In this document: in pieces, positions 54,671-55,580 of the stretch
Position numbering within the stretch: position 1 is the stretch's first letter
Layout of the letters: every line of letters begins with the position of its first letter
NCBI RefSeq assembly: GCF_030013205.1
Contig: NZ_CP122648.1
From: Escherichia coli
GTDB lineage: Bacteria; Pseudomonadota; Gammaproteobacteria; Enterobacterales; Enterobacteriaceae
Length of the DNA stretch: 64,000 nt
Reading direction: 5' to 3' (one strand)
Made by a program: the position numbers and the translations under genes
The notes under the pieces: model-generated
What the model saw: only the letters and a program-made list of their open reading frames with translations
Database searches by the model: none
Told to the model about the DNA's origin: nothing

Positions 54671-55501
54671 TTACGCGGAGCGAGACGCTGTCGCCCCTGC
54701 GTGTGGTGGCAGAGCAAATGCCACCAGCGCCGGGATGAGATAAATAAACCAGACGGCGACTTCGCTGACACTTGGCGCTTCCTGATAGCCAAAAATCCCT
54801 TCCATCAGCGTGCCAAACAGCGAGTGAGTTGAGAGCACCGCACTCATATCGAAGGCGATTTCCTGAAAGTGGTTCCACAATCCGGCTTCATGAAATGCGC
54901 GAATGGCACCAGCCGCCAGCCCTGCGGCGACGAAGAGAATAAACAGGCTGGTCCATTTAAAAAATGCACCAAGATTGAGGCGAATACCGCCCCAGTAGAG
55001 CAGGAAGCCGAGCACCACGGCTGTAGCAAGACCGAGCATTGCACCCAGCGGCGGCCAGATCCCGACATCTTGTTGAAATGCCGCCAGCAGGAAAAAGACC
55101 GACTCCAGCCCTTCCCTTGCAACGGCAAAAAAGACCATCATCACCAGCGCCCAGCCATGATGATTTCCACGCTGCAATGCGCTATCGACTGCCTGCTCCA
55201 GTTGTACTTTGACGTTGCGCGACACTTTGCGCATCCAGAAAACCATCCAGGTAAGGATCACCACGGCGATCACCGCCACGATACCTTCAAACAGTTCCTG
55301 TTCTTTTTGCGGAAATTCGCCGGTGGTTTCGTTAATGAAGATACCCAAGCCCAGGCACAACGCAGCGGCAAGCAACACGCCAATCCACATCACACCAATC
55401 CATCGGCCTCGTTGGGTACGCTTAAGATAGCTGGCAATCAAACTGACAATCAGCGCGGCTTCAAGTCCTTCGCGCAACATAATGAGAAATGGAACAAACA
55501 T
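54671..55501 (-). CDS. efeU: Ferrous iron permease EfeU (FTR1 family), apparently intact
   Basis: Continuous 276-codon frame from MFVPFLIMLREG with REGLE motifs. Confidence 0.85.
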   Translation of the reverse strand: MFVPFLIMLREGLEAALIVSLIASYLKRTQRGRWIGVMWIGVLLAAALCLGLGIFINETTGEFPQKEQELFEGIVAVIAVVILTWMVFWMRKVSRNVKVQLEQAVDSALQRGNHHGWALVMMVFFAVAREGLESVFFLLAAFQQDVGIWPPLGAMLGLATAVVLGFLLYWGGIRLNLGAFFKWTSLFILFVAAGLAAGAIRAFHEAGLWNHFQEIAFDMSAVLSTHSLFGTLMEGIFGYQEAPSVSEVAVWFIYLIPALVAFALPPHAGATASRSA

Positions 55502-55555
55502 GCCACCCACCCTTAAACGTTTTTCTGAGTCAATCTATGCAAAGAAAAGTAAATC

Positions 55556-55580
55556 GCAGTGATAGCGATTATCATTACGG
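55556..55580 (-). promoter_or_regulatory. Fur-box-like sequence upstream of efeU (aatgataatcgctatc)
   Basis: GATAAT/ATTATC-rich dyad upstream of efeU start. Confidence 0.5.

Follow-up and report, generated by a model that had tools for sequence, protein, structure and literature searches.

Intact efeU, efeO and efeB genes in a 64-kb stretch of a non-K-12 Escherichia coli genome

The efeU, efeO and efeB genes

The 64-kb stretch of DNA that was analyzed (the window) encodes efeU followed by efeO and efeB, all three on the same strand and all intact (Table 1). The list of open reading frames gave efeU as an uninterrupted frame of 831 nt, encoding 276 amino acids and a stop. The continuous 276-codon frame described in the initial annotation was thus recovered, on the minus strand and with no internal stop. 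An alternative in-frame GTG start at 55510, nine bases upstream of the ATG, would add three residues to the protein (279 aa). The ATG is the start used for this gene in the RefSeq annotation of identical DNA (WP_001590006.1).

Table 1. Positions of the efeUOB genes and of associated sequence features in the window
Feature	Position	Strand	Description
efeB	52209..53480	minus	Open reading frame; 423 aa; Tat-exported DyP-type haem peroxidase/deferrochelatase
efeO	53486..54613	minus	375 aa; periplasmic cupredoxin and M75/imelysin protein
efeU CDS	54671..55501	minus	ATG at 55501, TAA stop ending at 54671; Ftr1-like inner-membrane iron permease
GG of codon 36 (GGT, Gly36)	55395..55396	minus	Single G in K-12, giving a frameshift
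Purine-rich ribosome-binding region AAGGGTGGGTGG	55503..55514	minus	Directly before the ATG; read from the sequence
CpxR-box-like site GCAAAGAAAAGTAAA	55539..55553	plus	9/10 to GTAAA-N5-GTAAA; lies between Fur box and ATG; tentative
Fur-box-like 19-mer CGTAATGATAATCGCTATC	55561..55579	minus	60-78 nt upstream of the efeU ATG; 15/19 to consensus
TRIP1-type repeat, full length	~55830-56113		GC-rich (61% G+C); between the putP stop (56155) and efeU

EfeU scored above the cut-off of each of the three family models to which it was compared. These were the NCBIfam equivalog model NF041756 (331.2 bits, cut-off 255), the match to which spanned residues 5-262, the NCBIfam model for the EfeU/Ftr1 subfamily, TIGR00145 (349.9 bits, cut-off 303.8), and the Pfam FTR1 family, PF03239 (298.5 bits, cut-off 25.3; E = 6e-89). 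Residues 10-14 and 129-133 are both REGLE, a sequence of the REXXE iron-binding type. A crude Kyte-Doolittle hydropathy scan, with a span of 19 residues and a threshold of 1.6, yielded six merged hydrophobic blocks (residues 1-24, 32-60, 68-94, 146-173, 177-204, and 242-268), and the segment at approximately 113-135, which includes the second REGLE, appeared in the same scan as a weaker seventh block below the threshold. Seven transmembrane segments are stated for EfeU in the literature (PMC9174327). A sequence search of the PDB returned no solved structure of any EfeU relative.

The proteins encoded downstream were also complete. EfeO matched the NCBIfam EfeO models with 772 and 481 bits and contained the Pfam domains Cupredoxin_1 and Peptidase_M75. 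It had an HRLE sequence (HxxE motif) at residue 217, matched the EfeO structure in the PDB (7wgu) with E = 5e-229, and differed from the K-12 protein at three residues. EfeB contained the Tat motif SRRRLLKG together with D235, H329, and R347. It differed from K-12 EfeB at ten residues, none of which was D235, H329, or R347, and was near-identical to the YcdB structures 2y4f and 2y4d and to 3o72.

An Rfam scan of positions 50000-64000 gave no match at the efeU locus. The same database matched Ysr251 ('Yersinia sRNA 251', antisense type) at 50827-51020 on the plus strand, with 193 bits against a gathering score of 100. This match overlaps, in antisense orientation, the 3' end of the phoH gene (50822-51610/51886, minus strand), and conservation of phoH as a coding sequence may be all that it reflects.

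The region upstream of efeU

The spacer between putP and efeU was 653 nt long in the window, 542 nt in K-12, and 219 nt in the possum isolate A22. The window spacer is longer than that of K-12 because the TRIP1-type repeat within it is full length. The K-12 repeat at this locus has been named TRIP1b (PMC10888264), and the MG1655 copy is shorter than that of the window by an internal 123 nt. When at least 80% coverage of window positions 55700-56200 was required, the long form of the repeat was found in 945 of 5,426 genomes.

Closer to the gene, the upstream sequence was strictly conserved. The last 80 nt before the efeU ATG, including the Fur-box-like site, were invariant in the window, K-12, O157:H7, FDAARGOS_1290, and A22, whereas the sequence beyond these 80 nt diverged among the five lineages. 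The ribosome-binding region was likewise identical in all five.

The Fur-box-like site that the initial annotation had placed upstream of efeU was present at 55579-55561 as a predicted site. It matched the Fur consensus GATAATGATAATCATTATC at 15 of 19 positions, and no other site in the 64 kb reached 15/19. Mononucleotide shuffles gave a mean of 0.35 chance matches at this level per window, so the single match observed is not significant by count. The site is credible because of its position and its full conservation across lineages, rather than because of the number of matches. Direct regulation of efeUOB by Fur has been described in CFT073 and in MG1655 (PMC7157518). The CpxR-box-like pattern matched four times in the window, where 4.2 matches were expected, and is indistinguishable from chance. 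The copy between the Fur-box-like site and the start codon is nevertheless listed, tentatively, because of its position and because control of efeUOB by CpxAR and pH has been published (Cao et al. 2007, as cited in PMC3852070). A sigma-70 consensus scan of positions 55450-56200 found no promoter-like site. A possible -10 element, GATAAT, was noted by eye inside the Fur-box-like site, and its -35 partner, TTGTAT, matches at only 3/6 positions.

The divergent regulatory region between putP and putA contained an open reading frame of 69 aa (57822-58031, minus strand), which is annotated as the hypothetical protein WP_000979516.1 in related genomes. The K-12 annotation of this interval includes only the 8-codon ymdG.

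Comparison with K-12, O157:H7 and other E. coli genomes

In MG1655 (NC_000913.3) efeU is locus b4490, which is 830 nt long and annotated as a pseudogene. Global pairwise alignment of the 831-nt window gene with b4490 showed ten substitutions and only one gap, at nucleotide 106 of the gene. The window retains a G of codon 36 that is absent from K-12, in which the frame ends after 36 residues. When this G was restored to the K-12 gene, the translation was a 276-aa protein identical to window EfeU at 275 of 276 residues, with the sole difference at residue 267. The deletion in K-12 efeU has previously been placed in codon 36 (PMC3577903), and the gene is described as cryptic in K-12 and as functional in O157:H7 (PMC3577903, PMC2808357). 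The initial annotation had called K-12 efeU a frameshifted pseudogene and proposed an alignment with it; both the b4490 annotation and the one missing G in codon 36 agree with that description, and the G, the sole indel in the alignment, is present in the window.

The O157:H7 allele was taken as the functional reference for EfeU. Window EfeU was identical to EfeU of O157:H7 strain RIMD 0509939 at 275 of 276 residues, and the genes differed at 11 of 831 nt. A frameshift or premature stop relative to this intact allele, which would have contradicted the initial annotation, was looked for; there was no stop or indel, and the sole protein difference was R267H. EfeU of FDAARGOS_1290 differed from the window protein at two residues and that of A22 at three. 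Arginine was present at position 267 in O157:H7, K-12, FDAARGOS_1290, and A22, while codon 267 in the window is CAC, encoding histidine (window position 54702). Of 5,426 complete genomes, 21 had an exact match to the 65-mer around the His267 codon; these were nearly all swine ETEC or O139:H1 (edema-disease) strains, along with a few human isolates. Residue 267 lies beyond the span of the equivalog model and past the last hydrophobic segment. The substitution is probably neutral in effect.

To place these alleles in the species, the 1.1-kb efeU region and the site of the K-12 deletion were surveyed in complete E. coli genomes. The 1.1-kb region was present in 5,417 of 5,426 genomes. In 20 genomes, mostly swine ETEC and O139:H1, it was 100% identical to the window and annotated by RefSeq as containing an intact efeU. 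The deletion was surveyed with a 65-nt K-12 segment centred on codon 36, a query that reads that site alone. This segment matched exactly in 368 of the 5,379 complete genomes that gave a match. The other 5,011 aligned with an extra base, and those matches that were sampled spanned 66 nt with 95.5-98.5% identity. Sixty-five of the 368 deletion carriers were listed (the 60 best matches and 5 evenly sampled), and all 65 were laboratory K-12 strains or strains derived from them, among others MG1655, C600, J53, DH5alpha, DH1, RR1, NCM3722, and ER strains. These data indicated that an intact codon-36 site is the norm for the species, found in about 93% of complete genomes, and that the frameshift, among the 65 carriers listed of 368, marks the K-12 laboratory lineage. 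Since intactness is the species norm, it excludes K-12 and does not narrow down the strain any further.

The background of the strain was indicated by the window as a whole. Over 64 kb it differed from K_EC180, an isolate from swine faeces, by 5 substitutions and 3 single-base gaps (99.987% identity), and is therefore not K-12. The non-K-12 background suggested in the initial annotation is upheld by this identity together with the absence of the K-12 deletion.

Collinearity of the window with a second swine strain, CFSAN018748, was considered and rejected, as a 37-kb island at tRNA-Ser interrupts it. This integrase-bearing island (approximately 37 kb, 5503-42512) lies at the 3' end of tRNA-Ser(GGA) (5415-5502), between two copies of a 14-bp direct repeat, CCCCCTCACCGCCA, which forms the attachment repeats at 5489-5502 and 42513-42526. 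The island is absent from CFSAN018748, which is otherwise near-identical and has the same efeU allele; K_EC180 and several porcine ETEC genomes carry it. RefSeq annotates the K_EC180 copy with a tyrosine integrase (41144-42352), the reverse transcriptase of a group II intron, and numerous IS elements. Also annotated there are a cbtA/cbeA toxin-antitoxin system, an antirestriction protein, the M, S, and HsdR components of a type I restriction-modification system, a second, degraded restriction-modification system, and Hhe (DUF4011, 5.7 kb), an anti-phage protein. A further difference among these genomes was found in pgaC (49032-50357), for which the window has an uninterrupted frame of 441 aa and which is annotated as disrupted in both of the nearest genomes: K_EC180 is without the C at window position 49234, resulting in a frameshift, and CFSAN018748 is annotated with an 'internal stop'. 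Either genuine differences between lineages or errors of assembly may account for the pgaC disruptions in these two genomes.

Function of the operon and comparison with known systems

The efeU, efeO, and efeB genes are intact, the expected motifs are present in their products, EfeU is near-identical to the O157:H7 allele, and the proximal upstream sequence is conserved. The locus is very probably the standard intact efeUOB operon of non-K-12 E. coli. Transport activity, as well as regulation by iron and acid, would be expected in this strain by analogy with the near-identical alleles that have been studied. The O157:H7 and Nissle systems are reported to take up Fe2+ at low pH and to be induced by acid and by iron limitation (Cao 2007 and Grosse 2006, cited through PMC2808357, PMC3577903, and PMC3852070), and the O157:H7 EfeUOB system as a whole has been reported to be functional (Cao et al. 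2007, cited through PMC3577903 and PMC3852070). By this model, EfeU would act as an Ftr1-like inner-membrane permease with two REXXE motifs, receiving iron from the periplasm, where EfeO and EfeB handle it, and the system may support uptake of Fe2+ when conditions are aerobic, acidic, and poor in iron, as described for its counterparts. The operon would be repressed by Fe2+-Fur, most likely acting at the conserved upstream Fur box, and, when the pH is high, by CpxAR.

A restored reading frame would also result from reversion of the efeU frameshift in a derivative of K-12, and nothing else in the window fits such an origin. The ten further substitutions relative to MG1655 over 831 nt, the residue differences from K-12 in EfeO (three) and EfeB (ten), an upstream repeat structure unlike that of K-12, and the identity of the entire window to K_EC180 all contradict it, and we give it no credence. 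An intact frame could also conceal a system whose function is impaired, or whose expression differs, in this lineage, with R267H or the longer TRIP1-type repeat as the cause. The confinement of His267 to 21 genomes, where the other four lineages compared have arginine, would fit such an effect, as would a spacer that is longer than that of K-12 and holds a full-length repeat. However, residue 267, part of the C-terminal tail, falls outside the EfeU model match and past the last hydrophobic segment, and the repeat starts approximately 330 nt upstream of the ATG, in a full-length form that is shared with many of the 5,426 genomes (see above). The spacer of A22, moreover, is much shorter, and its proximal 80 nt are still unchanged. 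Impairment or altered expression from these causes is thus very unlikely, and we attach even less weight to the proposal that the His267 allele, alone or together with the full-length repeat, alters the activity, stability, or expression of EfeUOB as an adaptation to the pig gut.

The remaining alternative leaves the operon intact and concerns what it is for. Extraction of haem iron by EfeB, with transport through EfeU, is a second reported role for the system (PMC3577903), and the main role could accordingly be not the import of free Fe2+ but the release of iron from haem by EfeB in the periplasm, with EfeU carrying the released iron inward. The EfeB encoded in the window is a complete DyP-type deferrochelatase. 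The haem role is, however, compatible with the Fe2+ uptake reported for the O157:H7 and Nissle alleles, and sequence cannot separate the two. We consider haem-derived iron an unlikely main role, and the standard efeUOB operon remains the preferred reading of the locus.

An intact efeU outside K-12 is already known, and is a textbook, ordinary feature of the species, so the result has little import beyond correct annotation. The present survey does put a number on the textbook statement, with the K-12 frameshift in 368 of 5,379 complete genomes (65 of them listed, all laboratory K-12 derivatives). As predicted from its genes, the strain should have a complete EfeUOB iron-uptake route that K-12 is without, and caution is warranted when results on the iron physiology of K-12 are carried over to this porcine-pathogen lineage.

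Among known systems, one of the closest is that of O157:H7, in which EfeU (YcdN) is also 276 aa long with both REGLE motifs and the gene order efeU-efeO-efeB is the same as in the window. Upstream of the gene, the proximal 80 nt including the Fur box are identical and the sequence diverges beyond about 80 nt. Within the protein, O157:H7 has Arg267 where the C-terminal tail of window EfeU has His267. The pseudogene of K-12 MG1655 occupies the same locus, between putP and efeO, and its promoter-proximal region of approximately 140 nt is as in the window, one SNP apart. EfeU also resembles the Ftr1p/OFeT family (PF03239, TIGR00145) in its full-length model matches, two REXXE motifs, and multiple hydrophobic segments. 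The partner of Ftr1p, however, is the multicopper oxidase Fet3p, whereas the partners of bacterial EfeU are EfeO and EfeB (PMC3577903).
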